A stretch of DNA of 64,000 nucleotides, from assembly GCA_965220745.1 (NCBI GenBank), contig CBDCQT010000013.1, positions 448,001-512,000 of the forward strand. The letters are read 5' to 3'. The position numbers and the translations under genes were made by a program. This document shows, one piece after another, positions 31,482 through 64,000 of this stretch; within the stretch, counting starts at the first letter, position 1; each line of letters begins with the position of its first letter. Source of the DNA: Alphaproteobacteria bacterium (lineage in GTDB: Bacteria > Pseudomonadota > Alphaproteobacteria > UBA828). The notes beneath the pieces were generated by a model that saw only the letters and a program-made list of their open reading frames with translations, ran no database searches and was not told the origin of the DNA.

Positions 31482-31520
31482 GGTTACTCTTGGGGACGTT
31501 CGTGGTGGGTGAGGAGGATG

Positions 31521-48447: not shown

Positions 48448-48575
48448 GAGCACTCCTCCCAAGTTGCCGCTCTCAACTTAGCGAGCGGATGCATCACCGG
48501 GAAGGCGCTCAACATGTCGTGGAACTGGGATACTCTGGTCTGGCCGAGACGCCGGCCGGCAATGCCGCAAACCAA

Positions 48576-48593
48576 TTAGCGTTCATGCGCTAA
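48576..48593. promoter_or_regulatory. Palindromic operator candidate
   Basis: TTAGCG-N6-CGCTAA between the divergent dehydratase and mandelate-racemase-like genes. Confidence 0.4.
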
Positions 48594-48625
48594 GAACCTC
48601 CGCAACGCCCATGGAGCCCCGATCG

Positions 48626-49726
48626 ATGACGCCCGAAACACTGACCTTCCACAGCGTCGACGTGCGCGCTGTTGTTCTCAAGCTGAGGCGGCCCGTTGTC
48701 GCCAAGATCGCGACCATTACGGACTGGCCGCTCATCCTGATCGATCTGAAGACCGAGGAAGGGGTCGTCGGCCGCAGCTATCTGGAGCCCTACATTGTCA
48801 AGTCGATGAACTATCTCGTGCCGGCCTTGCACGACATGGGGGCGATGCTCAAAGGCGAAAGGCTGGCGCCGGCCGAAATCTACGAAACCGCCCGAAAGTC
48901 GCTGCATTTCGTCGGTTACGAAGGCATGTCAATGATCGCCGTTTCCGGCATCGACATGGCAGCCTGGGACGCCCTGGCCAGAGCCGCCGGCATGCCGCTC
49001 TGCACATTGCTCGGCGCCTCGCCCGGCACGGTGCGCGCCTACAACAGCAATGGGCTCTGGCTCAAGTCTCCGGCCGAAGTTGCCGCCGAGGCCATCGAGA
49101 TCCGCGACGAGGGACAGTTCGATGGCGTGAAACTGCGTCTCGGCCGGGACGATCCCAAGGACGACCTCGCCACGATCGATGCGGTTCGCCGGACGGTTGG
49201 CGAAGACATGCACTTGATGATCGATTTCAATCAGGGTCTGGATATGGCGGAGGCATTACGCCGGTGCCACATGCTCGACGATCTTGGACTGACCTGGCTG
49301 GAAGAGCCGGTGGTCTATGACAACTTCGACGGATACGCCCAACTCGCGCGGGAACTCAAGACGCCCCTGCAGATTGGCGAGAATTTCTACGGACCGCGCG
49401 ATCTGCACAAGGCATTGCGTTCCGGGGCCTGCGACTACGTGATGCCGGATTTCATGCGCATCGGCGGGGTCACCGGATGGATGCGCGCGGCAGCCATTGC
49501 GGGTGCGGCCGGCATCCCGATGTCAACGCACCTCTATCCCGAGTTCGGCGCCCATGTGATGCGGGCGACCGAAACCGCACATTGGCTGGAGTGGCAGGAC
49601 TGGGCCGATCCGATCCTGCAAAAGCCCTATGAGATCAAGGACAGCCATTTGCACATCCCGGATGTGCCTGGGGTGGGCCTGGACTGGAACGAAGATGTCG
49701 TCGCCAGAAACCTGTACGAGGCCTGA
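48626..49726 (+). CDS. Mandelate racemase-like enolase superfamily enzyme
   Basis: GIDMAAWDALA, KLRLG, DFNQ, WLEEP, GENF, MPDFMRIGGVTGW, STHL, HWLE. Confidence 0.9.
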   Translation: MTPETLTFHSVDVRAVVLKLRRPVVAKIATITDWPLILIDLKTEEGVVGRSYLEPYIVKSMNYLVPALHDMGAMLKGERLAPAEIYETARKSLHFVGYEGMSMIAVSGIDMAAWDALARAAGMPLCTLLGASPGTVRAYNSNGLWLKSPAEVAAEAIEIRDEGQFDGVKLRLGRDDPKDDLATIDAVRRTVGEDMHLMIDFNQGLDMAEALRRCHMLDDLGLTWLEEPVVYDNFDGYAQLARELKTPLQIGENFYGPRDLHKALRSGACDYVMPDFMRIGGVTGWMRAAAIAGAAGIPMSTHLYPEFGAHVMRATETAHWLEWQDWADPILQKPYEIKDSHLHIPDVPGVGLDWNEDVVARNLYEA

Positions 49727-49770
49727 CCGCCCGATTCCCTAAACGCTGTGACGGTGCCCAGAAGGCCAGG

Positions 49771-51549
49771 CTAGCCGTTGCGCAGCTGCTCCGTTGCGGC
49801 CTTGTCCAGCCCGCCGGCGTCGTCGAGGGCCACGCGGTAGGTCTCGTGGGCGGCCTCGGGCGAGACCCAGCGTTCGCGCACGTCGATGGCTACCTGTTCC
49901 GCCGGGCGCTCGGTCGGCGCGCCGTAGCCGCCACCGCCGCAGGAGTAGGAGACGATGGTGTGGCCCTGGGGGATGATTGCCTGGGCGCAGGGGTCGAGCT
50001 GGTGCAGGTCGCCGTTGGCATCGCGCCGGAACTGGTTGGCCCGCCCGCCTGCGGTGCCGCCGCGCGCACCCTCGGGCGGCGTGACGTTGCCGTCGCTGAC
50101 GTAGCCGACCTCGAGGTCGCCCTCGGTTGGCCCGAACTCGCAATAGACCCCGGCACCGCCCCGCGTGCGGCCGTGGCCGCCTGAATCGGTGAGGAAGTGC
50201 CGGCCGCGCACGGTGAGCGGGAAGCGCATCTCGTCGAGCTCGATGGAATCCTGATAGGACATGCCGGCGTTGCCGAGATGGCCGATCGAAATCCAGGCGT
50301 CGGCCTGGGCGCTCGCCGCGCCGCCGCCCCAGCCGAGGAAGATCTGATTGACGTAGGGGCCCTTGGTCTTCTCGCTGTGGCCTGAGATGACGCCGAGCGA
50401 GGGCGGGATGATGGAGCCTGTGCTCGCCATGCCGTAACCGTCGCCGAGGTCCGCGATCGCCCGGCTCACCGCGTTGCCGACGCGGTCGGCGAGATTGGTC
50501 GTCGCCACCGAGCAGCTGGTCGGGTGCCTGGGAATGCCGCAGACGGTGTTCTCCTTGAGGTGCATGCGCACCCGGCGGAAGGAGCCGGTATTGGTGGGCA
50601 CCGCGTCGGGGATGCTGTTGAAGACGCCGAGCAGCAGTGTGCTCTCGCAGCAGGCCTGCGAGAGGTTGAGGCCGCAGGGCATCGCGTCCGGGTTGTCGCG
50701 GAGGTCGATGTCGATCATCGCTTCCTCGGGGTCGACGTCGACCACGATCTTGACCGGAATGCCGTCCTCGGCGTTGGGGAAGGGGTCGTGCATCGAGTTG
50801 GTCACGGCCCGGCCCCCCGGCATCTTTCGCACGGCCGCGATCATCAGCTGCTCGCTGTAGTCGAACCACTGCTCGGCGAACTGGGCGAGGGTGTCCCAGC
50901 CGATCTCGTTGCCGAAGGCCATGATCTCGCGCTCGCCGATCCGCGCCGCGCCGAGCTCTGCCAGATAGTCGCCCCACCATTGCTCCGGCACGCGGATGCG
51001 GAGCCGGCACATGCGCACGATGTCCTCGATGTCCTCGTAATCGCGCTGGATCTGGACCGCCGGGAAGATCAGCGCGCCTTCCTCGTAAACGTCGCGCGCG
51101 CTGCCGTGATAGGTGGTGGCGATGGAATTGCCGCAGTCCGCTTGGTGCGCCTTGGCGACCATGGTGAAGCGGTGCACGCCCTCGTCGTCGATCACGGGCG
51201 CGAGGATGGTGTGGTCGGCCGGATGCGAGCAGCCGTGATAAGGAGAGTTGTGGAGGTAGGCGTCGCCCCGCTTGAGGTCGGCGTGAAACTCCTGCATCGA
51301 CTCGCACATCATATCGGCGCCGCGCAGAACGTGAATCGGCAGGCTTTCGTTGACGGTAAGCAGGCGGTTCTCGGCCGTGACGATGCAGCAGGAGAAGTCG
51401 CGCGCGCTGTTGAGCACGCCGGAGCGCCCAGTGCGCAGCAGCGTGTTGGCCATCTTGGCGCAGATGGCCTCCATCCGCTTGTTGATGATCGCCATCTGCA
51501 CGCCGTCGAGCGTGCCGTCTGCGTTGAGAGTCAGCGTATTCCTTGCCAT
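49771..51549 (-). CDS. Hydantoinase B / oxoprolinase catalytic subunit
   Basis: RDFSCC, LPIHV, NSPYHGCSHPAD, KAHQADCG, EEGAL, DSGGHGRTRGG, GGGGYG. Confidence 0.93.
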   Translation of the reverse strand: MARNTLTLNADGTLDGVQMAIINKRMEAICAKMANTLLRTGRSGVLNSARDFSCCIVTAENRLLTVNESLPIHVLRGADMMCESMQEFHADLKRGDAYLHNSPYHGCSHPADHTILAPVIDDEGVHRFTMVAKAHQADCGNSIATTYHGSARDVYEEGALIFPAVQIQRDYEDIEDIVRMCRLRIRVPEQWWGDYLAELGAARIGEREIMAFGNEIGWDTLAQFAEQWFDYSEQLMIAAVRKMPGGRAVTNSMHDPFPNAEDGIPVKIVVDVDPEEAMIDIDLRDNPDAMPCGLNLSQACCESTLLLGVFNSIPDAVPTNTGSFRRVRMHLKENTVCGIPRHPTSCSVATTNLADRVGNAVSRAIADLGDGYGMASTGSIIPPSLGVISGHSEKTKGPYVNQIFLGWGGGAASAQADAWISIGHLGNAGMSYQDSIELDEMRFPLTVRGRHFLTDSGGHGRTRGGAGVYCEFGPTEGDLEVGYVSDGNVTPPEGARGGTAGGRANQFRRDANGDLHQLDPCAQAIIPQGHTIVSYSCGGGGYGAPTERPAEQVAIDVRERWVSPEAAHETYRVALDDAGGLDKAATEQLRNG

Positions 51550-51565
51550 CGCCCGGCTCCCTGGG

Positions 51566-53629
51566 TCACGGCGTTATCAGGAGACTGCCCGAGGGCCGGC
51601 GCTCGGCCTTGGCCCCGGGGTCGATCACAACGGTGGTGAAAGACGATTCGATGATCGCGGGCCCGTCTACGGTCTCGCCCGGCCCCATGCCGTCGAAGTG
51701 CACGACGCGCGCCTCGACGAAGCCGGTATCCGGGAAATAGACTGAGCGGCTGTGCGCGATCTCCGGCCCACCGCCGGCGCTCTCCACGCTCAGGTTGACG
51801 CCGTCTCGGAGGCGGCAGCGCACGTTGGCGCGCCAGCCGACGGTCTCGATGGTGGATTCGATGTCGGCGAAGGTGAACAGCGCTTCGTGGGTCTTGTGGA
51901 AGTCCTCGATGAAGGCGGCGAGCGCGGGCTCGTCCTCGATCCGGTCCGCGCGCAGCGGCACCTCGATCTCCCAGATCTGGCTGGGATAGCGGGCCTCGGC
52001 GGTGAACTCCACGACCTGCTCCAGCGAGCCCGCGCCCGGCCCCTCGATGAAAGCCCGGCACTTCTGCTCCAGCCCCTCCAGCAGCGCATTCACGCCGTTG
52101 AAGTCGAAATCGCCGGTGGAAGTGTAGAGCGTGCCGCTGTACTCGGCCCTGAGATCCGAGATGAGCGCCCCGTGGGCGCTGAGCGCGGCCGCGACCTCAG
52201 GCAGGATCACCTGCGCGCAGCCGAGCCGGCGCGCGATGGCGACCGCGTTGAGGCCGGCTGCGCCGCCGCCGCCGACGATGGCGGCCTCGCGCGGGTCAAT
52301 GCCCTGGTTGACCGTGATGTCCTCGATGGCGTGCACCATGTTCTCGGTGGCGACGCTCATGATCGCGGCCGCTGCCTCGTGGAGCGAGAGGCCGAGTTTC
52401 TGCGCGACGTGGGTCTCGATGGCGTTCCCGGCGGCCTCGGTCTCCAACGCCATGGTGCCGCCGAGGAAGTAGGCGGGGTCGATCCAGCCGAGGACCACCG
52501 ATGCGTCGGTCACGGTCGGCTCGGTGCCGCCTGCGCCGTAGCAGACCGGGCCGGGCACGGCGCCGGCGCTCTTCGGCCCGACGTGGAGCAGGCCGCCTTC
52601 GTCGACCCAGGCGATGCTGCCGCCGCCCGCGCCGATGCTCTTCACGTCCACCGCCGGGAAGCCGGTCATGTGGCCGCGGTAGGGTTGGCCGATCCAGGTC
52701 TCGCGCGTCCAGGGGATGCGCCCACCGCGTACCAGGCTCACGTCGAAGGTGGTGCCACCGGTATCGGCGATGATGGCAGTATTGACACCGCTGTCGGCCT
52801 GGGCGTAGGCGCGGCCGGCGATCGGCGCCATCGCCGGGCCCGAGTTGATCGAATGGATCGGCGCGCTCGCCATGTCGGCCGCATCCATGGCGCCGCCCTG
52901 GGTGGTGACGACCAGCACCCGGCCGCCGAAGCCCGCGTCCCGCAGGCGCGATTCCAGGCCGCCCAGATAGCTGCCCATGAGCGGCTTGAGCGAGCCGTCG
53001 ATGCAGGTAGACGACGCGCGGCGGTACTCGCGGAGCGAGGGGTTGAGCACGTGCGAGAGGGTATAGGGCACGTCCGGCAGATGGCGCTCCAGCAGCTCGC
53101 CGACGCGAAGCTCGTGCGCGGGGTTCACGATGGACCAGAGCAGGCAGACGCCGACCGCCTCGATCTCCTGGCCCTTGAGCTGTTCGATGATCGCGACGAC
53201 GCCTGCCTCGTCCAGCGGCTCGGTGACGGTGCCGTCGTAAGACACACGCTCGGGCACCTCGTAGGTGAGCGAGCGCGGCACGTAGGGCTCGGGGTAGGGC
53301 ACGGTGAAGTTGAAGGGCTCGATGCGCCCGCCCTCGCGGAACACCAGCACGTCCGGATGGCCCTTGGTGGTGAGGAAGGCCGTGCGGGCGGTGTTGCCGG
53401 TGACGATGGCGTTGATCGCATGTGTGGTGCCGTGGATCAGCATCTCCCCGCGCCCGAGCAGGGCCTCGCGGCTCTCGCCCAGGTCGTCGGCGGCGTGGGA
53501 GAGCGTCTCCAGCACACCGGCGACTGGGTCCGACGGCGTGGTCGGCGCCTTGTACATGCGCAGGCCCCCGTCGTCGGACTCGACGACAAGGTCGGTGAAG
53601 GTTCCCCCGGTATCGACCGCAAATCGCAT
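51566..53629 (-). CDS. Hydantoinase A / oxoprolinase ATP-binding subunit
   Basis: DTGGTFTD, HGTT, NSGPAM, DTGGTTFDVS, GAGGGSIAW, VGPKSAGAVPGPVCYG. Confidence 0.94.
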   Translation of the reverse strand: MRFAVDTGGTFTDLVVESDDGGLRMYKAPTTPSDPVAGVLETLSHAADDLGESREALLGRGEMLIHGTTHAINAIVTGNTARTAFLTTKGHPDVLVFREGGRIEPFNFTVPYPEPYVPRSLTYEVPERVSYDGTVTEPLDEAGVVAIIEQLKGQEIEAVGVCLLWSIVNPAHELRVGELLERHLPDVPYTLSHVLNPSLREYRRASSTCIDGSLKPLMGSYLGGLESRLRDAGFGGRVLVVTTQGGAMDAADMASAPIHSINSGPAMAPIAGRAYAQADSGVNTAIIADTGGTTFDVSLVRGGRIPWTRETWIGQPYRGHMTGFPAVDVKSIGAGGGSIAWVDEGGLLHVGPKSAGAVPGPVCYGAGGTEPTVTDASVVLGWIDPAYFLGGTMALETEAAGNAIETHVAQKLGLSLHEAAAAIMSVATENMVHAIEDITVNQGIDPREAAIVGGGGAAGLNAVAIARRLGCAQVILPEVAAALSAHGALISDLRAEYSGTLYTSTGDFDFNGVNALLEGLEQKCRAFIEGPGAGSLEQVVEFTAEARYPSQIWEIEVPLRADRIEDEPALAAFIEDFHKTHEALFTFADIESTIETVGWRANVRCRLRDGVNLSVESAGGGPEIAHSRSVYFPDTGFVEARVVHFDGMGPGETVDGPAIIESSFTTVVIDPGAKAERRPSGSLLITP

Positions 53630-53659
53630 GGCTCTCCCGCCGTGTCAGATGGCTCTCCC
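53628..53659. repeat. 11-bp direct repeat duplicating the RBS of hydantoinase A
   Basis: atggctctccc at 53628-53638 and 53649-53659 (minus strand GGGAGAGCCAT). Confidence 0.7.
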
Positions 53660-53731
53660 TGCCAGCGGCCCTCGCCGCCGGGCGGGCGGACCCTAGCCCG
53701 AAATCCGGCGGGACGCCACGGCGGGGCGGTT

Positions 53732-53761
53732 TAGAGGGCGTCGGTCTAGAGGGCGTCAGTC
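53732..53761. repeat. 15-bp tandem duplication of the LVIVD gene 3' end
   Basis: tagagggcgtcggtc / tagagggcgtcagtc; reads ...E-T-D-A-L-TAG-T-D-A-L-TAA on the minus strand. Confidence 0.8.
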
Positions 53762-54879
53762 TCGATGATGTCGACGCCGCGCTGGCGGTCGATCAGGTAG
53801 ATGAGGCCACGGTCGTCCACGGTGACGTCGTTGGAGGAGGCGCGCTCGCAGCCCTCCGGCGGGTCGGGGACATAGCGTGCGACCTCGTGCGGCGCGAACG
53901 GGTCCGACACGTCCACCAGCCGCAGGCCCTGGGCGAACCAGGCGAAGGGCACGACGTTGCCGGTGAACCGGTCCGACGGCTGGTGGCAGCCGGTCATGTC
54001 GGGCTGGGGGCTGCCGTCCTTGTCGACTCCGTCCACGTCAATGGTGCTGATGGGGATGGGGCAGCGCTCCTCGGTGATGTCGTAGACCCAGGCGAAGGCC
54101 GGCGGGGACGGCCAGAGCTTCGCCACGTCCTCGTCGGCCACCACCATGATGTGCCGGCCCTTGAGCCTGTAGGGGAAGGGCAGGCAGGTGTGGGTCGGGT
54201 GCGGGAAGGCCGGGCTGGTGTTGACGCCGGCTACGTGCTTCGGCTTCGTCATGTCCTCGATGTCGAGGATGAAGAGGCCGTGGTGCCAGTAGCTGACGTA
54301 CAGCCGGTCGCCGAGCCGGAGTGGATGGTGGCAGCGGGGCGCCACCCAGTCGTCCCAGGGATACTCCTCGCCGCCCGCCTGCCACTGGCCGGGGATCCAC
54401 CAGCGGCCGACTTCCTGCGGCGCCGCGGGATCGGCGAGGTCGAGGATCATCACGATGTTGCCGACGTAGCCCTCGACGGTGGGCGAGATGTAGGCGTAGC
54501 GGCCGTCGAAGGTGAAGCGGTGCACGCCCTTGCCGGCGGTGCGCCACTTGGTGATGAGGGTGGGCGTTGCGGGGTTCGAGATATCGTAGATGCCGAGCCC
54601 GCCGCCGAAGCCGTTGGCGTCGTTGCCACCGCCGCCGAGGCGCTCGTGGTTGACCAGCATGATGCCGTTCGCGGCGCGGACCTTGTGGGAATGCCAGCCT
54701 TCCGGCAGCTCGATACGCGCGAGCGTGCGCGGGTTCGCCGGGTCGGCCACGTCCACGACGGTGGTGCCGGACGGCCAGCGCATGTGGCCGATGTAGAGCG
54801 TGGTGCCGTCGACCCAGACCTGCCCGCCGCCGGGGCAGTCGATATGGGCGAGCCGGCGGGTGCGGTGCGCGTCAGCCAT
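53746..54879 (-). CDS. LVIVD-repeat beta-propeller protein
   Basis: Repeats TVVDVADPANP, GIYDISNPATP, MILDLADPAAP, FILDIEDMTKP, RLVDVSDPFAP. Start at ATG 54879; the longer ORF is a shadow over the next gene. Confidence 0.88.
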   Translation of the reverse strand: MADAHRTRRLAHIDCPGGGQVWVDGTTLYIGHMRWPSGTTVVDVADPANPRTLARIELPEGWHSHKVRAANGIMLVNHERLGGGGNDANGFGGGLGIYDISNPATPTLITKWRTAGKGVHRFTFDGRYAYISPTVEGYVGNIVMILDLADPAAPQEVGRWWIPGQWQAGGEEYPWDDWVAPRCHHPLRLGDRLYVSYWHHGLFILDIEDMTKPKHVAGVNTSPAFPHPTHTCLPFPYRLKGRHIMVVADEDVAKLWPSPPAFAWVYDITEERCPIPISTIDVDGVDKDGSPQPDMTGCHQPSDRFTGNVVPFAWFAQGLRLVDVSDPFAPHEVARYVPDPPEGCERASSNDVTVDDRGLIYLIDRQRGVDIIETDAL

Positions 54880-54896
54880 CGCGTTGCGTCGCGCTG

Positions 54897-55820
54897 CTAC
54901 GAGCGGCCTTCGAGCGCGCGGCGGACGGCGACGAGCTGGCCGGCCCGCTTGCCCTGCAGGGCTTTGATGTCGTCCGGCGTGTAGGAGAAGATTCCGGTGC
55001 CGGTCTTCATGCCGAGATCGCCTTTCTCTGTCCGCTCCGTGATGTAGCTGCTCACGTTGTCGCGGTTGCAGAGGTCGGCGTTCAGGTAGCTGCCGACCGC
55101 CTGGTAGATGTCGAGGCCGGCCATGTCGAGCAGCGACATCGGCCCCACGACCGCGAGCTTGTAGCCGATGCCCCAGGAGACGCAGGTGTCGAGGCCTTCC
55201 GGCTCGATCACGCCGTTCTCCACCAGGTCGCAGGCCTCGCGCATGATTGCGTAGAGGATGCGGTTCTCGACGAAGCCGGGCACGTCCTTCTTCACCACCA
55301 CGGGCAGCAGGTTGAGATCCTTGATCGCCTGCACCATCGCGTCGCAAGTGGCCTGCGTGGTCTCGGCGCCGGCGATGACCTCGATGACCGGGATGATGAA
55401 CGGCGGGTTCGACCAGTGCATGCCGACCACGCGCCCCGGCGCCGAGTTGCCCTCCTGCAGCGTGGTCACCGGGATGCCCGAGGTGTTGGAGGCGAGGATG
55501 CACTCCTTCGAGACCAGCTTGTCGAGGTCCGCGAAGACGGCACGCTTGATCTCGACCTTCTCGGGCACGCTCTCCAGGACGATATCGCAGCCGGCGACGG
55601 CATCGGCGAGGGTGTCGTGATAGCTGATCAGCTCGGCTCCGCCGCGATCGGGCATGCCCAGCTTCTCCAGCACGCCGAAGGCGATGCCGGCGGTGCCGGG
55701 CGCCTTCTCGAGCTGTGCCGCTTCGGTATCGAAGGCGCGCACCGTGAGCCCGCCGCGCGCGAGCGTTGCCGCCATGCCGGGCCCCATGGTGCCGAGGCCA
55801 ACTACCGCTGCCGTGGTCAT
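54897..55820 (-). CDS. 3-hydroxyacyl-CoA dehydrogenase-fold enzyme, probable 5-formyl-3-hydroxy-2-methylpyridine-4-carboxylate (FHMPC) 5-dehydrogenase
   Basis: GLGTMGPGMAATLARGGL, GMHWSNPP, LLPVVVKKDVPGFVENR, DTCVSWGIGYK, LLDMAGLDIY, LNADL.NRD and LVAVRR..EGR match, as recalled, Mesorhizobium loti Mlr6793. Confidence 0.8.
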   Translation of the reverse strand: MTTAAVVGLGTMGPGMAATLARGGLTVRAFDTEAAQLEKAPGTAGIAFGVLEKLGMPDRGGAELISYHDTLADAVAGCDIVLESVPEKVEIKRAVFADLDKLVSKECILASNTSGIPVTTLQEGNSAPGRVVGMHWSNPPFIIPVIEVIAGAETTQATCDAMVQAIKDLNLLPVVVKKDVPGFVENRILYAIMREACDLVENGVIEPEGLDTCVSWGIGYKLAVVGPMSLLDMAGLDIYQAVGSYLNADLCNRDNVSSYITERTEKGDLGMKTGTGIFSYTPDDIKALQGKRAGQLVAVRRALEGRS

Positions 55821-55866
55821 ATCCGTGGTTCTCCCTCTGGTAGATGCCGTCGCTGGCTGACCCGCC

Positions 55867-57021
55867 TCAAACGAGGCGGACGGTATCGCCGGTATCGTCG
55901 CGGCCCCATTTTCTGAAGTGGCCGAGCGCGTGGAGCGCCGGCTTGTCGCTCGCCACGAAGAGGATGGCGGGCTCGGTCTCCGAATCGTTGACGTGGTGGC
56001 ACCACTGGCCGCCGGGCACCGCGAGGGTATCGAACGGCTGCCAGTCGAAGCGGGTCTCGCCCACGATGCTATGGCCGCGCCCTTCGAGCGGGGAGACGAG
56101 CAGGCTCGCGGTCTGCTTGAGCGGCCGGGTCTTCTCGCCAGGCCTCAGCATCTGGGCGTAGAAGGTCATGGTCCTGAACACAGGGCCGCCGCGGGTGGGG
56201 TCGACGTATTCCACCATCAGGGCCTCGTGGGGGTCGCCGTCGCGGTCGCGGTGCGCCTCCAGCATCTCGCGCATCGGCTCCCAGCGATAGACGTACATGG
56301 GCGAGCCCGTGCCGCTGCCGCGCCCGTGGGGCACGAAGCAGGGCATCAGGCCGCCGGAGCCGTAGACCTCGGCCGAATAGTCAGCGCTGAAGCGGGCGGA
56401 TTGCTCCTTCGCGACGACCGTGCGGCCGTCCTTCTCTTCCTTGTAGTCGTGCTCGAAGTAGATCGCGTTGAGGACTTCAACCAGCGGCAGGTCGAGCACG
56501 GAGAGGTTCACGGCAGGCTCGTCGCCCTTGTTGCCGTGGTTGTGCCAGGTGTCTTGCGGCGTCAGCACCATGTCGCCGGGGCCGAACACGATGTCCTCGC
56601 CCTCGACCCCGGTGAAGTTCATTGAGCCCGTGAGCCCGAGGCGGATGGCGTTGGGCGAATGGCGGTGGGGCGGCATCACCTCGTTGGGGTCGTTGAGTCG
56701 GTAGGCGGAGTACATGGTGGAGACGGTCGCGCGGGTGGGCGCAAGGCCGGGATTGACCAGGATCAGCGAACGGCGCTCGGAATCCGCCATCGAGACCAGC
56801 TCGGCCGAGCGGCGGAGCAGGGGCCCGATCTCGCTCTCGTAGCGCCAGAGGTAGGGGACTGCGCCGCGGCTCCCCATGAGCTGGCGGATCTCGTCGTGCG
56901 CGACCTCGGTGGTGGTCGCCCAGAAGGGGAACATGTGGCCGCTATGGACATCGTCGTAAAGCGCGGCGAGGGCCGCGTCGCGGTTGCTTGCGTCTGTGCT
57001 CGCCGGCTGCGTTTCGTTCAT
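55867..57021 (-). CDS. Bicupin, gentisate 1,2-dioxygenase family
   Basis: ERRSLILVNPGL, HRHSPNAIR, LTPQDTWHNHGN (3-His Fe site), LDLPLV, VEYVDPTRGGP, SDKPALHALG. Confidence 0.85.
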   Translation of the reverse strand: MNETQPASTDASNRDAALAALYDDVHSGHMFPFWATTTEVAHDEIRQLMGSRGAVPYLWRYESEIGPLLRRSAELVSMADSERRSLILVNPGLAPTRATVSTMYSAYRLNDPNEVMPPHRHSPNAIRLGLTGSMNFTGVEGEDIVFGPGDMVLTPQDTWHNHGNKGDEPAVNLSVLDLPLVEVLNAIYFEHDYKEEKDGRTVVAKEQSARFSADYSAEVYGSGGLMPCFVPHGRGSGTGSPMYVYRWEPMREMLEAHRDRDGDPHEALMVEYVDPTRGGPVFRTMTFYAQMLRPGEKTRPLKQTASLLVSPLEGRGHSIVGETRFDWQPFDTLAVPGGQWCHHVNDSETEPAILFVASDKPALHALGHFRKWGRDDTGDTVRLV

Positions 57022-57150
57022 GTCCGCCTGCCGTCTCTCGCCCGCCGCTCGAGGAGAACGGCTATTTGGCGCTGCGTAGACTAGCTCGGAATTCTTCCCT
57101 CGGTCACGGCCCACGTGGGTCGAGATCATGAGCATGGCGAAGGAGACGGG

Positions 57151-58320
57151 CTAAGCCTGCGGAAGTACGTCCTCGGGCGAGTGGGTGAGGGCGACGCAAC
57201 CGAAGAGGCGGGCGGTCGCGGCCGGGTCGGGCTGGATCGCGCGGTAGTAGGCCGCCAGCGTGTCCGTCGGCTTGGCGAAGCGGGCGAGCTGAGCGGTGAA
57301 ATGGTAGTAGGGCAGCAGCCACGCGTCGCGCGCCTCGCCGTAAGAAGCAAGCGCCTCGCCGAGCGGCCGCCGCCCATTGAGCCCATCGTCGGCGGCCTCG
57401 GCCAGCATCTCGGCGCAGCGGAACGCGGTCGAGATGCCCTGCGCAGTAACCGGGTCCTTCTTCATGCCCGCATCGCCGACCAGGGCCCAGCCGGAGCCGG
57501 CCGCCTCGCGCACGAAGGCCCGCGTGCAGCCGGCATGGAAGCCCTCGACCCGCTGGGCACCGGGCAGCATCTCGCTCAGGTCGGGCGCGACCTCGTCGAG
57601 CCTCGCGTGGAACGCGGCCTCCCGGTCGCGGCGGGCGGCCACGAACTCGTCGTGCATCAGGTTGGCAGCCACCAGCACGGTGCCGTCGCTCGCGGGGAAG
57701 CCGAAGGCGCCCTTGCGCTCTCGGATGTAGAGCCTGACGTGGTCGAGCGCGATGCCCTCCCAATAGCTCCAAATGTTGCTCTGCACGACCGGCTCGCACA
57801 GAGACTCTTTCGCGCCGACGCAGCGCGCAACGACCGAGGCGGGCCCATCCGCGCCGATGACCAGGCGTGCGCGCTCGGTTTGCCGCCTGTCGTCCTGGCT
57901 CAAGGTCACGACGCCGGCAACCGCGCCGCTATCCTCGACCAGATCGACCACGCGCGTGCCGTCGCGAAACTCCGCGCCGGAGGCGACGGCCGCCTCCGCC
58001 AGCGTGCCGTCGAGCAGCTGCCGCCGGGGGCCGTAAGACTCGGTCTGGCCGTCTACCGCAGGCGGTGCACCCTCGAGAACGATGCCGTGCAGGTCGACCC
58101 GCCACTCGGTGAAGGGGGTGGCGCGCGCCGCGATCTGCGGCAGTACGCCCCAATCGCACAAATGCGCCACGCCCAGCGGATGAATCAGGTGCGTCGATTG
58201 CCCCATCTCGCTGGGGAAGCGATCGCGGTCGAGCAGCAGCACGCGGTGGCCCTTTCGGGCCAGAAGCATGGCCGTGGGCGCACCCGCGCAGCGGGCGCCG
58301 ACGACGATCGCGTCGTAGAT
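57151..58320 (-). CDS. FAD-dependent oxidoreductase (geranylgeranyl reductase/FixC-like); apparent ATC start codon
   Basis: (I)YDAIVVGARCAGAPTAMLLARKG dinucleotide motif starts at 58320, after AGGAGG; IGADG and LVGDAG..KDPVTAQGI motifs. Confidence 0.85.
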   Translation of the reverse strand: MYDAIVVGARCAGAPTAMLLARKGHRVLLLDRDRFPSEMGQSTHLIHPLGVAHLCDWGVLPQIAARATPFTEWRVDLHGIVLEGAPPAVDGQTESYGPRRQLLDGTLAEAAVASGAEFRDGTRVVDLVEDSGAVAGVVTLSQDDRRQTERARLVIGADGPASVVARCVGAKESLCEPVVQSNIWSYWEGIALDHVRLYIRERKGAFGFPASDGTVLVAANLMHDEFVAARRDREAAFHARLDEVAPDLSEMLPGAQRVEGFHAGCTRAFVREAAGSGWALVGDAGMKKDPVTAQGISTAFRCAEMLAEAADDGLNGRRPLGEALASYGEARDAWLLPYYHFTAQLARFAKPTDTLAAYYRAIQPDPAATARLFGCVALTHSPEDVLPQA

Positions 58321-58338
58321 TGCGCGCCTCCTAAGGCG

Positions 58339-58725
58339 TCAGTCGCACTCGAACGGGGTAACCCAGCCGATGGAGGCGCCGGCGCTGTCCTTGACCACGG
58401 CGAAGCGGCCGACGTCGGGCACGTCGAAGGCCGGACGCATGATCTCGCCACCCGCAGCCTCGACGCCTGCGAGCCGGGCGTCGATGTCGTCCACGGTGAT
58501 GTAGGAGAACCAGTGGTCCGGGACGCCGTCGAAGCCCGTGCCCGGCTTCATCTCGAAGATGCCGGCGGCCATGGTCTCGCCGGCCTTGCAGAGCGAGTAG
58601 GTGCCGCCGTCGGCCATCGGGTGCGACTCGTACTGCCAGCCCAGGGTTTCCCCATAGAACGCCTTCGCCTTGTCGACGTTCCAGGTCATCAGCTCGTTCC
58701 AGAAGAATGTACCGTGTGCCTTCAT
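58339..58725 (-). CDS. VOC/glyoxalase family protein
   Basis: HGTFFWNELMT, AKAFYGETLGW, WFSYITVDD, FDVPDVGRFAVVKD. Confidence 0.9.
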   Translation of the reverse strand: MKAHGTFFWNELMTWNVDKAKAFYGETLGWQYESHPMADGGTYSLCKAGETMAAGIFEMKPGTGFDGVPDHWFSYITVDDIDARLAGVEAAGGEIMRPAFDVPDVGRFAVVKDSAGASIGWVTPFECD

Positions 58726-58801
58726 CGGGATCGCTTTCGCCCTCCGTAGAGATTCCCGGATTGTGTTGACCGCGCCCCGCCCGCACGACGTGGTCCGGGG
58801 A

Positions 58802-60214
58802 TTATAGGTCGGGGGCCCGGGTGTGCCAGTCGGTCGCTTGCTGATAGGCGTGGCCGAGGCGGAAAAGCGTCGCCTCGGAGAACGGGCGCCCCATCAACTG
58901 GAAGGCGGCAGGCAGGCCGCTCTCGGTGAAGCCGCAGGGCACGATCAGGCCGGGGCCGCCGAGGTAGTTGGCAGCGCGGGTGCACGTGCTCAGGCCGGCG
59001 ACCATGGCGGCCATGCGATCGCCGCCGCCGACATTCGTCTCCTCCCGCGTGGGGATGGGGAAGGGGATGGCCGGCGTGTGCAGCGCGTCGACGCCGTCGA
59101 GCGCGGTATTCACGAACTCGCGCAGCAGCCCGGAGCGCGCGGCGAGGGCCTGGATGTACTTGACCGCCGGCACGTGCAGGCCGGGCTCGTAGCGGTTGCG
59201 GACCTGCTCCTGATAGTCCTCGGGCCTGCTGACCAGCCAAGGCTCGTGGATCGCCGCCGCCTCGCTGGAGAGGATGACGTTGGAGAGGTTGTTGATGCGC
59301 TCGATGTCGGGCACCGAGACCTCAACGACCGTGACGCCGCAATCGCGCAGCACGTCGAGGCTCCGTTCCATCAGTGCGCGCACCTCGTCGGTGGCCTGGT
59401 CGTAGAAGTAGCTGGTCGGCACGCCGATCCTGAGGCCTTGCGCGCCCTCCGCCAACGCGGCTTCGTAATCGGGCACGGGCCGGTTGCTGGAGGTCGGATC
59501 GCGCGGGTCGTGGCCTGCGATCACGCTCACGATCCGGGCCGCGTCGCGCGCGGTGCGGGTCAGCGGCCCCACCGTGTCCAGCGTGTGGGAGAGCGGCATG
59601 ATGCCGTGGCGGCTGACCAGGCCGGCGGTCGTCTTGAGTCCGACCACGCCGTTACAGGCCGACGGCAGTCGCACAGAGCCGCCGGTATCGGAGCCGAGCG
59701 CGCCGAAGACCACGCGGCCCGCGACCGCGGAGCCGGAGCCGCTCGACGAGCCGCCGGAGATGTGATCCCGGTTCCAGGGGTTGCGGCAGTCGCCCCAGTG
59801 CTCGTTGTGGCCGGTCGGACCGGTGGCGAACTCCGCCATGTTGAGCCCGCCGAGGTAGATCGCGCCGGCGCCGTGAAGGCGGGCGAGGGCAGTGCTGTCC
59901 TGGTCCGGCACGAAGTCCCTGCGGATGCGCGAGCCGCAGGTGGTGACGTGGCCCGCGCGGTAGAACATGTCCTTGTGAGCGAGCGGCACGCCGTGCAGCG
60001 GGCCCGGCGCCTTGCCCCGCGCGAGCGCGGCATCGGCAGCCGCCGCAGTCTCCAACGCCGCCTCCGCCTGCAGCGAAATGAAGCAGTTGAGCACCGGCTG
60101 GAGCCGCTCGGCACGGGCGACGGTGGCGGTCATCACCTCGACGGCCGAAAGCTGGCGCGTAGCAATGGCGTCGGCGAGCTCGACCAGGCTCAGCAGGTGG
60201 ATGTCGTCGCTCAT
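58802..60214 (-). CDS. Amidase signature family enzyme (GatA/AtzE-like)
   Basis: LHGVPLAHKD, GGSSSGS, GSDTGGSVRLP (Ser-cisSer-Lys triad), GRPFSE. Confidence 0.93.
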   Translation of the reverse strand: MSDDIHLLSLVELADAIATRQLSAVEVMTATVARAERLQPVLNCFISLQAEAALETAAAADAALARGKAPGPLHGVPLAHKDMFYRAGHVTTCGSRIRRDFVPDQDSTALARLHGAGAIYLGGLNMAEFATGPTGHNEHWGDCRNPWNRDHISGGSSSGSGSAVAGRVVFGALGSDTGGSVRLPSACNGVVGLKTTAGLVSRHGIMPLSHTLDTVGPLTRTARDAARIVSVIAGHDPRDPTSSNRPVPDYEAALAEGAQGLRIGVPTSYFYDQATDEVRALMERSLDVLRDCGVTVVEVSVPDIERINNLSNVILSSEAAAIHEPWLVSRPEDYQEQVRNRYEPGLHVPAVKYIQALAARSGLLREFVNTALDGVDALHTPAIPFPIPTREETNVGGGDRMAAMVAGLSTCTRAANYLGGPGLIVPCGFTESGLPAAFQLMGRPFSEATLFRLGHAYQQATDWHTRAPDL

Positions 60215-60215
60215 C

Positions 60216-60416
60216 TCAGCGCGCCGCCGTTTCATCCATGGCGATCTGAATGCGCGACGGCTCGCTTTCGAAGGCGAGCCCGGAGGCCGCGTCGTCGGTC
60301 GCTTGCACCATCAGCTCCACCGCGGCGGCAAGAGCCTTGGCGCGCTCCGGACTCGGCGGTTTGCGCCCCGCCGACACGGCCTGGGCGGCGATGAGTTCGT
60401 CGGAAATCCTGGCCAT
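60216..60416 (-). CDS. Small protein coupled to the amidase (possible GatC/AtzG-like partner)
   Basis: 66 aa helical; LAFESEPS near the C-terminus; stop 1 bp before the amidase ATG. Confidence 0.65.
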   Translation of the reverse strand: MARISDELIAAQAVSAGRKPPSPERAKALAAAVELMVQATDDAASGLAFESEPSRIQIAMDETAAR

Positions 60417-60648
60417 GAGCGGCACCTCGGAGGCGCGGGAGTGCAGGACGGCCCTGTATACAGCACCGGGGCAGGGGTGCAATATGAGTGGGCGTCACCA
60501 TATGGCCGGTGAGGGCAGGGGGCCCCTGCATCGAACCGGGAGCGTGGCAATGGAGCCTTCGGCAGTCGAACGCGACCGCACGCGCCTCTTGGCGAAAGCC
60601 TGCGGCGCGTAGGGCGACGGGCGGGCAAGCATCCACGGCAGGGAGCAG

Positions 60649-61059
60649 ATGATCATGGCAGACAACGAACCGAAGAGGGTCGTTCAGCAGTTCCTGGATG
60701 CGATCAAGGGCGGCGACGGCCAGACCATGATGAGCCTGCTTGCCGAGGACGCGGTGGTGGTCCTGCCGGGCTCGTTCAAGGTCGCGTGGGCGGGCCGCTG
60801 GCAAGGGCGCGAGCCGATCAAGCAGTGCTTCCAGGCGATCGGGGCCCTGCTGGACATCCGCGACCACACGGTGAATCTGATGTTCGGCGAGGGCGAGCAC
60901 GTGATGGTGCTCATCGACGAGACGTCGGCTGCCAAGAACACCGGGCGTCTCCTTCATCAAGAGACGGCCTGGTATTTCCGCATCGTGGACGGCGCCATCG
61001 TGCATTGGCAGGCGTACGAGGACACCGAGCAGATCGCCTGGGTGTGGGACGAGGGCTGA
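60649..61059 (+). CDS. SnoaL/NTF2-like protein
   Basis: VVQQFLDA, LLAEDAV, WAGRWQGRE, FRIVDGAIV..QAYEDT. Confidence 0.85.
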   Translation: MIMADNEPKRVVQQFLDAIKGGDGQTMMSLLAEDAVVVLPGSFKVAWAGRWQGREPIKQCFQAIGALLDIRDHTVNLMFGEGEHVMVLIDETSAAKNTGRLLHQETAWYFRIVDGAIVHWQAYEDTEQIAWVWDEG

Positions 61060-61081
61060 AGACTGCAAGAGGGAGAACCCG

Positions 61082-61426
61082 ATGGATGCTCCGGGCCAGG
61101 TCACGTTGGCCCAGGCGGTGGCGGCCCTCGCCGATGCTCCGGCAGGCGGGCGACCTTACGCCGAGCTGATCAACCGTGGCACGCTTCGGGTCGGCCTCTA
61201 TGCGCCGCGCGGCACCGACCCACAGCAGCCCCACGACCAGGACGAGGTCTACGTAGTCATGAGCGGCCGGGGGACCTTTCGTAACGGGCCGGTGAGCCAT
61301 CCCTTCCAGCCTGGCGATGTGCTGTTCGTGCCCGCCGGTGTGTCGCACGTGTTCGAGGACTTCAGCGACGACCTTTATGTGTGGGTCGTGTTCTACGGCC
61401 CGCACGGCGGCGAGGCCGATAGCTGA
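61082..61426 (+). CDS. Monocupin (cupin_2) protein
   Basis: DPQQPHDQDEVYVVMSG, GDVLFVPAGVSHVFEDFS, WVVFYGP. Confidence 0.9.
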   Translation: MDAPGQVTLAQAVAALADAPAGGRPYAELINRGTLRVGLYAPRGTDPQQPHDQDEVYVVMSGRGTFRNGPVSHPFQPGDVLFVPAGVSHVFEDFSDDLYVWVVFYGPHGGEADS

Positions 61427-61459
61427 GCTTGGTCGGCGGTCGGGCAAGCGGCAGGGGCG

Positions 61460-63742
61460 ATGGCTGACGAGGCGCTGATCCGAACCGAGGCCGCCGCAAG
61501 CGCGGACCCGCGCCCGGCGGGCAGCGCGTTGCGCCAGCGTTTCGTGTCGTGGTTGCAGCGTCCCGATGTGCGGCGCTGGCTCGCCATCGGGCTCGCCTGC
61601 GCCGCGGTGATTTGCGGTGCGATCACCTACGCCACGATGAGCGGCTCGGCGCCGTTCGGCCCCGAGCCCCAGACCATCCTGATTCTCCTCAACATCGACC
61701 TGGTGTTGTTGTTGCTGCTCGGTGCGTTGGTCGCTTCGCAGCTGGTGAAGCTCTGGATGGAGCGCCGCCGCGGGGCAGCCGGCGCGCGCATGCATATCCG
61801 CATGGCGGCGCTGTTCAGCCTCGTGGCTTTGACGCCGACCATCGTCGTCGCCGTGTTCTCGGCGCTCTTTCTCCACTTCGGGATGCAGTCCTGGTTCAGC
61901 GAGAAGGTCTCGACTGCGCTCAACCGCTCTCTGGTCGTCGCGCAGACTTATGTGCAGGAGCAAGGCGACAGCATTCGTATCAGCACCCTGGCTGCGGCCA
62001 TGCAGCTCAACGGTCAGGCCGTTCACCTTGCACGACGCCCTCAGCTCATGCCGCGGCTCCTGAACGATACGGCCAACGCGCTCTCGCTTACCGACGCGGT
62101 TATTCTCCGCCGCAACGGGGATGTCCTGGCCCGCAGCGACCTGGGCCTCGCCGCAGTGATCGATCCCGTACCCGATTGGGCCATGAATGCCGCAGCCGAG
62201 GGGCGCCTCGTGATCCTTCCGGCCGAGGACGACCGCGTGCGTGCGCTGATCAAGCTCGGCGGATTCATCGACAGCTACCTCTATGTGGCACGGTCGCTGC
62301 AACGAGACGTGATCGCTCACACCCGCCAAATCCAGGCCGTGACGAGGGACTACCAGCGCCTCGAGGATGAGCGCTACGGCATCCAAATCACGTTCGTGAT
62401 GATTTTCATCCTGGTCGCTCTTCTTGTCCTGCTCTCAGCGGTGTGGCTCGGGCTCCAATTCGCCAACCGCATCGCCCATCCGATCGGCGGCCTCATCGCG
62501 GCTGCGGACCGGGTTCGCGCCGGCGAGCTTGCTGCGCGTGTCGACGAACCCCCGCAAGACGACGAAATGGGCTCTCTCAGCCGCGCCTTCAATCGGATGA
62601 CCGGTCAAATCCACAGCCAGCAGCAGGAACTGCAAGACGCCAACCTGCAACTGGACGAAAGGCGGCGCTTCACCGAGGCGGTGCTTGCCGGCGTCTCCGC
62701 CGGCGTCATCGGCCTGGATGCAGACGGGCTGATTACGCTGCCCAACCCGTCAGCGCTTGCGTTGCTGGACGCGAGGCAGGACGACCTCTCCGGCCACGCG
62801 TTCCAGGAGGCAGTTCCGGAAATGGCCGACCTGCTGACCCGGGCGCGAACGCTGCCCCAGCCCTTGGTCGAGGATCAGGTCGAATTGGTTCGCGGCGAGC
62901 GCCGCCGCACCTTGCTCGTGCGTATCGTGACCGAACGCGATGGCCAAGAGATCGACGGCTTCGTCGTCACTTTCGACGACATCTCCGCTCTGGTGTCGGC
63001 GCAGCGGCGGGCGGCGTGGGCCGATGTCGCCCAGCGCATCGCCCACGAGATCAAGAATCCTCTGACTCCGATCCAGCTCTCCGCCCAGCGGCTAAAGCGT
63101 CGATATCTCGGCGAGATCAGCACCGAACCGGAAGTGTTCGAGGACTGCACCGACATCATCGTCCGTCAGGTCGGCGACATACGCCAAATGATCGATGCAT
63201 TCTCGTCATTTGCGCGGATGCCGGCACCCATGATCGAACGGGCGGAGCTGACGGGCATCGTCGAGCAAGCAGTCGCCCTGCACCGTCTGGCGAACCCCGA
63301 GATCGCCATCAAGATCGAGCGTCCCGACGACGACGTTCACCTCAACTGCGACGTACACCAGATTGGCCGGGCGCTTACTAACGTGCTGAAGAACGCCGTC
63401 GAAGCGATTGAGAGCCGAGCACCCGACGCCAGCCCACCGGGGCGCATCGTCATTCGCGTGGGTGAAGTCGACCGGCACTGGCGGGTGGAGGTCGAGGACA
63501 ACGGGCCGGGGCTACCCGCCGAGCTGCACGACAGATTGACTGAGCCCTATGTGACCAACCGCGCCGATGGCACGGGCCTCGGCCTCGCCATCGTGCGAAG
63601 GATCATGGAGGATCACGGTGGCCGGTTGATCCTCGAGAACGGGGCCGAAGGCGGAGCCCGTGTCACGCTCGTCTTCGCCGCGATCGGGACAGAGCCCTCC
63701 TTGCCGGCGAGGGGTGAGAGCCAATGGCCCACGATATTCTGA
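61460..63742 (+). CDS. ntrY: NtrY sensor histidine kinase
   Basis: TM segments, HAMP (RAFNRMT), PAS, AWADVAQRIAHEIKNPLTPIQLSA, FSSFARMP, DNGPG, GTGLGL. Confidence 0.93.
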   Translation: MADEALIRTEAAASADPRPAGSALRQRFVSWLQRPDVRRWLAIGLACAAVICGAITYATMSGSAPFGPEPQTILILLNIDLVLLLLLGALVASQLVKLWMERRRGAAGARMHIRMAALFSLVALTPTIVVAVFSALFLHFGMQSWFSEKVSTALNRSLVVAQTYVQEQGDSIRISTLAAAMQLNGQAVHLARRPQLMPRLLNDTANALSLTDAVILRRNGDVLARSDLGLAAVIDPVPDWAMNAAAEGRLVILPAEDDRVRALIKLGGFIDSYLYVARSLQRDVIAHTRQIQAVTRDYQRLEDERYGIQITFVMIFILVALLVLLSAVWLGLQFANRIAHPIGGLIAAADRVRAGELAARVDEPPQDDEMGSLSRAFNRMTGQIHSQQQELQDANLQLDERRRFTEAVLAGVSAGVIGLDADGLITLPNPSALALLDARQDDLSGHAFQEAVPEMADLLTRARTLPQPLVEDQVELVRGERRRTLLVRIVTERDGQEIDGFVVTFDDISALVSAQRRAAWADVAQRIAHEIKNPLTPIQLSAQRLKRRYLGEISTEPEVFEDCTDIIVRQVGDIRQMIDAFSSFARMPAPMIERAELTGIVEQAVALHRLANPEIAIKIERPDDDVHLNCDVHQIGRALTNVLKNAVEAIESRAPDASPPGRIVIRVGEVDRHWRVEVEDNGPGLPAELHDRLTEPYVTNRADGTGLGLAIVRRIMEDHGGRLILENGAEGGARVTLVFAAIGTEPSLPARGESQWPTIF

Positions 63743-64000
63743 TCGTCGACGACGAACCCTACGTTCGCAAATCCATCGCCGGGATCCTGGAGGACGGCGG
63801 CTATATGCCGCGTGATGCCGCCGATGGCGCCGCCGCAATCGAGGCAATCGATTCCGGACCACTGCCGTCACTCGTCATCCTCGACGTCTGGCTGGAGGGA
63901 AGCGAGCTCGACGGAATGGACGTTCTGGACGGGGTTATGCACCGGCATCCCGAAGTACCCGTCATCATGATCAGCGGACACAGCACCATCGATACTGCCG
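63724..64000 (+). CDS. ntrX: NtrX response regulator (partial, runs off window end)
   Basis: MAHDILIVDDE...ILDVWLEGSELDG...PVIMISGH; overlaps the ntrY 3' end. Confidence 0.9.
   Translation, partial: MAHDILIVDDEPYVRKSIAGILEDGGYMPRDAADGAAAIEAIDSGPLPSLVILDVWLEGSELDGMDVLDGVMHRHPEVPVIMISGHSTIDTA

Follow-up and report, generated by a model that had tools for sequence, protein, structure and literature searches.

Three adjacent genes on the minus strand of an alphaproteobacterial contig probably encode a widespread and apparently undescribed lower branch of vitamin B6 catabolism, one that would replace the canonical lower half of the pathway in many Alphaproteobacteria. The genes lie in a 64,000-nucleotide stretch (contig CBDCQT010000013.1, positions 448,001 to 512,000; hereafter the window, with positions counted from its first letter) and encode a gentisate 1,2-dioxygenase (GDO)-like bicupin, an FHMPC dehydrogenase and an LVIVD beta-propeller. 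They form part of a composite row of nine genes. Bacterial degradation of vitamin B6, a textbook pathway known from few strains, has a single lower branch defined by genetics. In pathway I the known lower half is made up of a 4-decarboxylase of 3-hydroxy-2-methylpyridine-4,5-dicarboxylate (HMPDC), the flavin oxygenase MHPCO and AAMS hydrolase. What deserves attention is the conserved trio, together with the Rid deaminase and GST-like protein that usually accompany it, rather than the nine-gene row as such. The trio is laid out as follows:

53746-54879, minus strand: cytoplasmic LVIVD beta-propeller (PF08309, 59.6 bits against a cut-off of 20.2)
54897-55820, minus strand: FHMPC dehydrogenase ortholog with a 3-hydroxyacyl-CoA dehydrogenase fold (NF042925, 480.6 bits)
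55867-57021, minus strand: GDO-like bicupin (TIGR02272, 213.1 bits against a cut-off of 442)

A census of the neighbourhood of FHMPC dehydrogenase was taken over the best 80 of 487 relatives from species-representative genomes, using 10 kb flanks and tblastn with fixed identity thresholds (loci carry L-numbers, genomes of the sample described below carry G-numbers, and G000 is the genome that contains the window). Both the bicupin and the propeller stand beside the dehydrogenase at 61 of the 80 loci, which bears out the recurrent linkage of cupin and LVIVD genes to FHMPC dehydrogenase homologs that the initial annotation of the window had singled out for comparison. At four loci (L023, L026, L049, L052) the propeller lies at a contig end. 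Nine loci, eight from Mesorhizobium and one from an unclassified metagenome-assembled genome (MAG), carry the canonical set instead, whose members were identified by their PDB counterparts: 3ALJ for MHPCO (E 4e-254), 2Z7B for the Mlr6791 decarboxylase and 3KXP for AAMS hydrolase. Six loci have neither set; the dehydrogenase is within about 1.2 kb of a contig end in four of them, and two are actinobacterial. None of the 80 loci carries both lower-pathway sets.

The company kept by the trio is that of vitamin B6 degradation. Among the 61 trio loci, upper-pathway genes recur for the binding protein and the ATPase of an ABC transporter (49 loci each), 4-pyridoxolactonase (46), SDR-type pyridoxal 4-dehydrogenase (41), pyridoxamine-pyruvate transaminase (38) and a GMC oxidoreductase (31). 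The transporter, lactonase, dehydrogenase and transaminase of Dongia deserti (L034) all score above curated NCBIfam cut-offs. The Rid deaminase is present at 52 of the 61 loci and the GST-like protein at 53; both are absent from this window. No other oxygenase was found to recur in these 61 loci. Since cultured carriers exist (Tistlia, Dongia, Virgifigura, Azospirillum and Inquilinus), direct testing is possible.

A similar association emerged from a phyletic sample of 301 genomes drawn evenly from the class, which are not independent of one another. FHMPC dehydrogenase (E<=1e-90) and 4-pyridoxolactonase (over its cut-off) were each detected in six genomes. The bicupin (E<=1e-60) was detected in 11, at an identity of at least 66% in six and of 36-41% in five, and the propeller (E<=1e-40) in 13, at an identity of at least 70% in six, 58% in one and 35-46% in six. 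Close orthologs of all four markers share the same six genomes (G000, G048, G084, G210, G213 and G247). In G000 and G048 the lactonase is encoded far from the trio, so the co-occurrence of the four markers is not simply a product of adjacency. The evidence thus points to a second lower branch for vitamin B6, found at 61 of 80 loci and in all six FHMPC dehydrogenase carriers among the 301 genomes.

These patterns also bear on the possibility that the substrate of the trio is some other ortho-hydroxy-carboxy aromatic or pyridine aldehyde or acid, with the linkage to vitamin B6 genes reflecting a shared substrate class or regulation. GDO-family enzymes take varied salicylate-like substrates, the window's dehydrogenase scores slightly under its equivalog cut-off, and the trio is distant from the lactonase and transporter in G000 and G048. 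However, a phyletic pattern identical to that of 4-pyridoxolactonase in 301 genomes, physical linkage to five B6-specific families in most loci and mutual exclusion with the canonical lower pathway at all 80 loci make a different substrate distinctly unlikely.

The initial annotation recognised none of the canonical lower-pathway genes in the cluster. This observation holds, and extends to the genome as a whole: no close homolog of the decarboxylase or AAMS hydrolase was found in G000, and its best MHPCO match, at 42%, lies elsewhere. When G000 was searched by tblastn with the proteins of L065 and L068, the decarboxylase gave no match or one of 26% identity, AAMS hydrolase gave 33% over 149 aa, and MHPCO gave 41-42% in an unrelated transporter context on contig 10 (C10). 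There, at C10:369483-371893, ABC transporter genes adjoin two tandem flavin adenine dinucleotide (FAD)-dependent monooxygenases with 39-42% identity to MHPCO. The five other trio genomes gave a best match to the Mlr6791 decarboxylase of 32% identity and 61 bits, partial matches of at most 37% to AAMS hydrolase, and a single MHPCO match (44%, in G048), with none at E<=1e-20 in the other four.

It could be argued that the bicupin and propeller are accessory, for example in the removal of a side product, and that an unrecognised enzyme opens the ring. In favour of this, FAD monooxygenases 39-44% identical to MHPCO occur in G000 and G048. Such monooxygenases are nevertheless absent at E<=1e-20 from four of the five other trio genomes, the trio loci share no other recurrent oxygenase, and the bicupin retains the full GDO catalytic set described below. 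We consider an accessory role very unlikely.

Upper-pathway genes are present in G000 outside the window. A putative B6 ABC transporter and a 4-pyridoxolactonase (426 bits, cut-off 325) are encoded at C13:418246-423951, about 24 kb before the start of the window and about 78 kb from the trio, among unrelated neighbours. C12 encodes a transaminase homolog (65% identical), and both C5 and C13 encode GMC oxidoreductases.

The label of the dehydrogenase as an FHMPC-dehydrogenase-like enzyme is confirmed: it is a near-ortholog of the Mesorhizobium loti enzyme, matching the solved structure (PDB 4OM8) over its full length (residues 4-306, E 2.8e-113). Against the FHMPC_DH family NF042925 (EC 1.2.1.100) it scores 480.6 bits, under the equivalog cut-off of 500, and the next family scores 186 bits; orthologs from typical GDO-type clusters score 502.9 and 500.9 bits. 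Residues Ser114, His135, Asn138 and Glu147 align with Ser116, His137, Asn140 and Glu149 of 4OM8, which we take to be the active site of the 3-hydroxyacyl-CoA dehydrogenase fold, including its His-Glu pair. Among eight 3-hydroxyacyl-CoA dehydrogenase homologs in G000, this is the sole copy of the FHMPC dehydrogenase type.

A quick maximum-likelihood tree of 87 rows (81 FHMPC dehydrogenase-like sequences and six G000 paralogs) resolved the 81 as one clade apart from the paralogs (SH-like approximate likelihood-ratio test, SH-aLRT, 97). The nine rows from canonical loci group in a single clade (SH-aLRT 99) that is nested among those of GDO-type loci, a label that includes eight truncated loci at which the two genes had not both been seen. 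Because of this nesting, the M. loti arrangement may be derived, a weak hint given the long outgroup branches of the quick tree. As a separate observation, the actinobacterial loci L077 and L084 carry an FHMPC dehydrogenase-like gene (60%) alongside genes that resemble the lactonase and the SDR (51-56%). Both lack the bicupin and propeller as well as close canonical lower-pathway genes, and L084 has a distant MHPCO-family gene. These two loci may represent a third arrangement.

The bicupin belongs to the wider family of gentisate 1,2-dioxygenases and keeps their catalytic residues. Its nearest solved relatives are two of these enzymes (PDB 2D40, E 2.1e-51; 3BU7, E 2.3e-45). It scores 209 bits with NF049978 and falls well short of the gentisate 1,2-dioxygenase equivalog cut-off of TIGR02272. 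Across 61 of 61 bicupins, the residues of a 3-His Fe(II) site (H119, H121, H160) and of an Arg/His catalytic pair (R127, H162) are invariant. At two positions of the pocket, where both solved GDOs have Gln and Asp, these bicupins invariably have Arg108 and Ser174. We assume that these positions face the distal substituent of gentisate, where a basic residue such as Arg108 would suit a second carboxylate. We propose that the bicupin is the ring-cleaving Fe(II) dioxygenase of an alternative lower branch. No NCBIfam equivalog covering either the bicupin or the propeller was found, and no public name other than "cupin domain-containing protein" or "gentisate 1,2-dioxygenase" appears among the 120 bicupin homologs listed.

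Comparison with the gentisate/salicylate 1,2-dioxygenase pathway is instructive. The bicupin fold, the 3-His iron site, Arg127 and His162 are shared, and the GST-like, maiA-like protein that is usually encoded next resembles the glutathione (GSH)-dependent maleylpyruvate isomerase of that pathway. In contrast, the bicupin reaches only 213 of the 442 bits required, Arg108 and Ser174 replace Gln and Asp, the presumed substrate is a pyridine dicarboxylate, and the hydrolase partner is a propeller rather than fumarylpyruvate hydrolase.

The propeller was modelled with AlphaFold (AF2) at high confidence (pLDDT 92.5, pTM 0.91). The top Foldseek hit of the model was 5HRM (E 3.8e-18, TMq 0.74), followed by a generic propeller (E 3.9e-9), and the family profile also matched 5HRM (E 1.9e-15). 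This structure is Sb-PTE, the phosphotriesterase of Sphingobium sp. TCM1, a seven-bladed propeller with a binuclear metal centre and the only specific relative of the LVIVD protein in sequence and fold. The two differ in length (495-504 residues against 377), genomic context and presumed substrate, and their identity is about 20%. Among 73 propeller sequences (64 orthologs and nine paralogs), 34 columns are invariant, including H120, H184, H230, H299, eight Asp/Glu positions and R320. H299 aligns with a His of 5HRM in the sequence alignment. In GDO-type loci that are not close relatives, propeller identity is 70-76%. By analogy with Sb-PTE, the propeller is probably a metallohydrolase, and we suggest that it acts on the ring-fission product.

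Nine LVIVD paralogs in other genomes (L170-L178; 33-58% identity, cytoplasmic) adjoin TctA tricarboxylate transporters and ABC permeases. Their further neighbours include a thiamine pyrophosphate (TPP) enzyme, an aminotransferase, a class II aldolase and a PrpD-family protein. These contexts suggest a wider family of small-acid enzymes; they fit small-acid metabolism and indicate no specific function.

A chemically plausible route can be drawn from these assignments. The upper pathway would generate FHMPC from pyridoxamine, pyridoxal or pyridoxine via 4-pyridoxolactone and 4-pyridoxate, and the dehydrogenase would oxidise FHMPC to HMPDC. The bicupin would then bind HMPDC on its 3-His iron and cleave the C3-C4 bond. 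Chelation is expected since the 3-hydroxyl of HMPDC adjoins the 4-carboxylate, as in salicylate, the motif that GDO-type enzymes chelate. Ring fission would give an open-chain imine/enamine tri-acid in which C2-C3 forms an imine of pyruvate and N1-C6-C5-C4 an aminomethylene-oxaloacetate unit. The propeller would split this product, with hydrolysis possible on either side of the nitrogen. Rid-type deamination would subsequently yield pyruvate (the expected C2-C3 fragment), ammonia and a formyl-oxaloacetate-type acid, and in most genomes the GST-like protein might act like the maleylpyruvate isomerase of the gentisate pathway. The roles given to the propeller, Rid and GST-like proteins are assigned by analogy only.

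Compared with pathway I of M. loti and Pseudomonas MA-1 (mlr6785-mlr6807), the proposed route has in common FHMPC dehydrogenase, 4-pyridoxolactonase, pyridoxamine-pyruvate transaminase, GMC oxidoreductases and a putative B6 ABC transporter. It differs in that the decarboxylase, MHPCO and AAMS hydrolase are replaced by the bicupin and propeller, with Rid and GST-like proteins added in most genomes. We tentatively put forward a more specific reading, which is possible though short of an even chance. The bicupin would cleave HMPDC with neither decarboxylation nor a flavin oxygenase, the propeller would be a new metallohydrolase of the resulting aza-dienoate, and Rid and GST-like proteins would complete the liberation of ammonia and pyruvate. 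Of the two routes, this one would be more common in Alphaproteobacteria and possibly older, with that of M. loti derived. In the present lineage, which is associated with sponges or corals, HyuA and HyuB, encoded beside the trio, would perhaps have been brought in as substitutes for Rid and GST.

Confirmation would extend the gentisate dioxygenase family by a member that cleaves a pyridine ring, give cytoplasmic LVIVD propellers their first metabolic role and correct the generic names that bicupin homologs now bear. It would also matter for how vitamins turn over in the microbiomes of soil, sponges and corals. No description of a cupin or propeller route for vitamin B6 was found in the literature searched, which comprised titles and the starts of abstracts and covered few subscription-journal or older B6 papers. 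The available portion of a preprint on 4-pyridoxolactone and 4-pyridoxate signalling contains none of the terms "dioxygenase", "FHMPC", "decarboxylase", "gene cluster" or "ring" (10.64898/2026.01.20.700305).

The trio sits within a row of nine minus-strand genes (49771-60416), all present where the initial annotation had placed them and belonging to the families it had named. In order of transcription, these are a 66-aa open reading frame (ORF), an amidase, a VOC protein, a flavoprotein, the bicupin, the FHMPC dehydrogenase, the LVIVD propeller, HyuA and HyuB, separated by gaps of about 1, 76, 18, 129, 46, 17, 116 and 16 nt. Besides the trio, the row comprises:

49771-51549, minus strand: HyuB-type subunit (PF02538, E 1e-111)
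51566-53629, minus strand: HyuA-type subunit, hydantoinase/oxoprolinase/caprolactamase alpha (PF01968, PF05378, PF19278)
57083-57153, no strand: junction of block B and block A (blastn limits)
57151-58320, minus strand: FAD-dependent oxidoreductase, group A monooxygenase/halogenase-like (PF01494), probable ATC start
58339-58725, minus strand: VOC/glyoxalase-fold protein (PF00903, E 5.6e-10)
58802-60214, minus strand: amidase-signature amidase, GatA/AtzE-like (PF01425, E 1.4e-110)
60216-60416, minus strand: candidate GatC/AtzG-like small subunit of the amidase, 66 aa (no match in Pfam or NCBIfam)

The ratio of nonsynonymous to synonymous substitution rates (dN/dS) against close relatives was 0.08-0.26 across all nine genes, the small ORF included; all therefore appear to be functional and under purifying selection. 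A scan of 49500-60800 found no terminator-like site on the minus strand, and the two promoter-like sites in the scan, against 1.1 expected, are uninformative.

Nucleotide comparisons divide the row in two. Block B (49773-57083) holds the bicupin, FHMPC dehydrogenase, propeller and HyuA/HyuB, and block A (57153-60416) the GatC-like small subunit, amidase, VOC protein and flavoprotein. By blastn, L012 (89% nucleotide identity) matches 49773-57083 only, a span that runs from the bicupin to HyuB, and the flanks of L012 have their counterpart at C13:644-652 kb of G000. The metagenome contig L089 (85%) matches 57153-63998 only, from the flavoprotein through NtrY, with no trio downstream, and L009 matches 49773-64000 and so holds both blocks. 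As the matches of L012 and L089 stop sharply at 57083 and 57153, the row consists of two blocks joined within about 70 nt. The junction is also present in read data: a 507-nt contig of read run X1, identical to the window, spans it (57019-57525), and it also occurs in X8, in a relative of about 89% identity. Pieces of several row genes were found in the metatranscriptome library X20; such read-run pieces often come from paralogs or relatives.

The initial annotation had read the nine genes as one pathway in which the cupin may open the ring and the ATP-dependent HyuAB pair, the amidase or both may hydrolyse a lactam or N-acyl product. Part of this stands, namely an Fe-cupin and a propeller near FHMPC dehydrogenase with no canonical set; HyuAB and the amidase are not conserved parts of the system. 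A single pathway would agree with the co-directional genes, their tight spacing and the lack of a minus-strand terminator-like site in the scan, with the adjacency of HyuAB to the trio in L009, L010, L012 and L014, and with a metatranscriptome contig that spans the gap between LVIVD and HyuA (53526-53796). This last item is weak evidence, since such libraries can contain DNA. On the other side, L089 has the amidase block with no trio and L012 the trio and HyuAB with no amidase block. HyuAB accompanies the trio at only 4 of 61 loci, and the block A genes (flavoprotein, VOC protein, amidase and small ORF) occur at 1 of the 80 loci, L009, whose dehydrogenase is 99% identical. In addition, the predicted ring-fission product contains no amide bond. 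A joint nine-gene pathway is accordingly unlikely, and the nine-gene, operon-like row as a conserved unit was rejected, with each block held alone by close relatives.

HyuA and HyuB share the two-subunit architecture and every Pfam domain of the caprolactamase/5-oxoprolinase/N-methylhydantoinase family. Both score far under the caprolactamase cut-offs of 1000 bits each (HyuA 557.3 with NF050156; HyuB 235.7 with NF050157). The recurrent HyuAB linkage that had been anticipated along with that of the cupin and LVIVD genes is confined to the four loci named above, all close relatives. In L010 and L014, two different, unrelated opposite-strand genes each are inserted between LVIVD and HyuA. A HyuA ortholog at least 66% identical occurs in two of the five other trio genomes, unlinked to the trio in both. 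HyuA matches number 36 in G000 (4.8 Mb), which makes chance adjacency to the trio more likely, and 21 in its relative G048 (3.3 Mb). We take HyuA/HyuB to be a lineage-specific neighbour of unproven relevance. The expansion of HyuA in G000 and G048 is striking in its own right, and a second HyuA match lies within the window at 29358-31520 on the minus strand.

Several points weigh against the trio as a B6 lower branch in this organism or more broadly. The B6 genes of G000 are dispersed, and no ortholog of the SDR-type pyridoxal 4-dehydrogenase was found there (best 39%), so that its pathway may be incomplete or used differently. The dehydrogenase falls slightly short of the curated NF042925 equivalog cut-off, and the substrate and products are ones that we infer from chemistry and gene neighbourhood. 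The 80 census loci, as the best of 487 relatives, include many related MAGs, and their counts are not independent. Finally, HyuAB has been kept with the trio in four related species despite altered flanks and two independent insertions; this persistent linkage, which our favoured reading discounts, could mean a functional link.

Block A is a separate unit, made up of a heteromeric GatC/GatA-like amidase, a VOC protein and a flavoprotein. The amidase matches GatA (PDB 4WJ3, E 1.6e-89) and AtzE (6C62, E 1.1e-63) and falls under both AtzE-family cut-offs (NF006631, 325.3 bits against 461; TIGR02715, 317.5 against 425.75). Its amidase-signature Lys-Ser-Ser triad (K81, S156, S180) is invariant in 15 sequences. 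Small ORFs with a C-terminal [DE]x[DE]P motif, a motif picked after the data had been seen, lie upstream of the amidase at 18 of the 46 amidase loci examined, and more distant amidase loci carry a true GatC. The small ORF of the window has a dN/dS of 0.26. A model of its product in complex with the amidase gave an ipSAE of 0.88 against 0.00 for the best control. The mark is one that 58 of 80 solved complexes attain, as do 2 of 110 mismatched pairs. Agreement of contacts between runs was at least 93%, and the pLDDT of the partner was at least 87. Because GatCAB and AtzEG complexes are solved, this result shows likeness, not proof of binding, and the 66-aa protein is best described as resembling the GatC/AtzG-like small subunit of an amidase.

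Block A thus shares with AtzE-AtzG (1-carboxybiuret hydrolase) and the GatCAB amidotransferase a Lys-Ser-Ser amidase with a small upstream GatC-like subunit. It differs from them in an amidase under the AtzE cut-offs, a small protein with no family, and VOC and FAD proteins as neighbours. Across 80 metagenome loci, no neighbour of the amidase homologs recurred besides the small ORF, and for this reason a substrate could not be inferred. The flavoprotein has weak PDB matches to flavin halogenases and PqsL-like enzymes (E about 1e-11). As a correction to its gene model, no ATG, GTG or TTG precedes its GxGxxG motif. The start codon is likely ATC (58318-58320), which is preceded by GGAGG at 6 nt in an arrangement kept in the relatives L009 and L089.

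Two features flank the row. A gene for a mandelate racemase/MLE-family dehydratase (48611-49726, plus strand) sits in a lower-GC stretch, 48492-49772, that is unmatched in L009, whose matches on both sides are 92%. Two plus-strand genes (60649-61426) separate the amidase block from ntrY/ntrX, one for a SnoaL-like protein (60649-61059) and the other a small single-domain ORF (61082-61426). The cupin label first given to the latter fits, with no NCBIfam match. The two genes are kept together with block A in L089.

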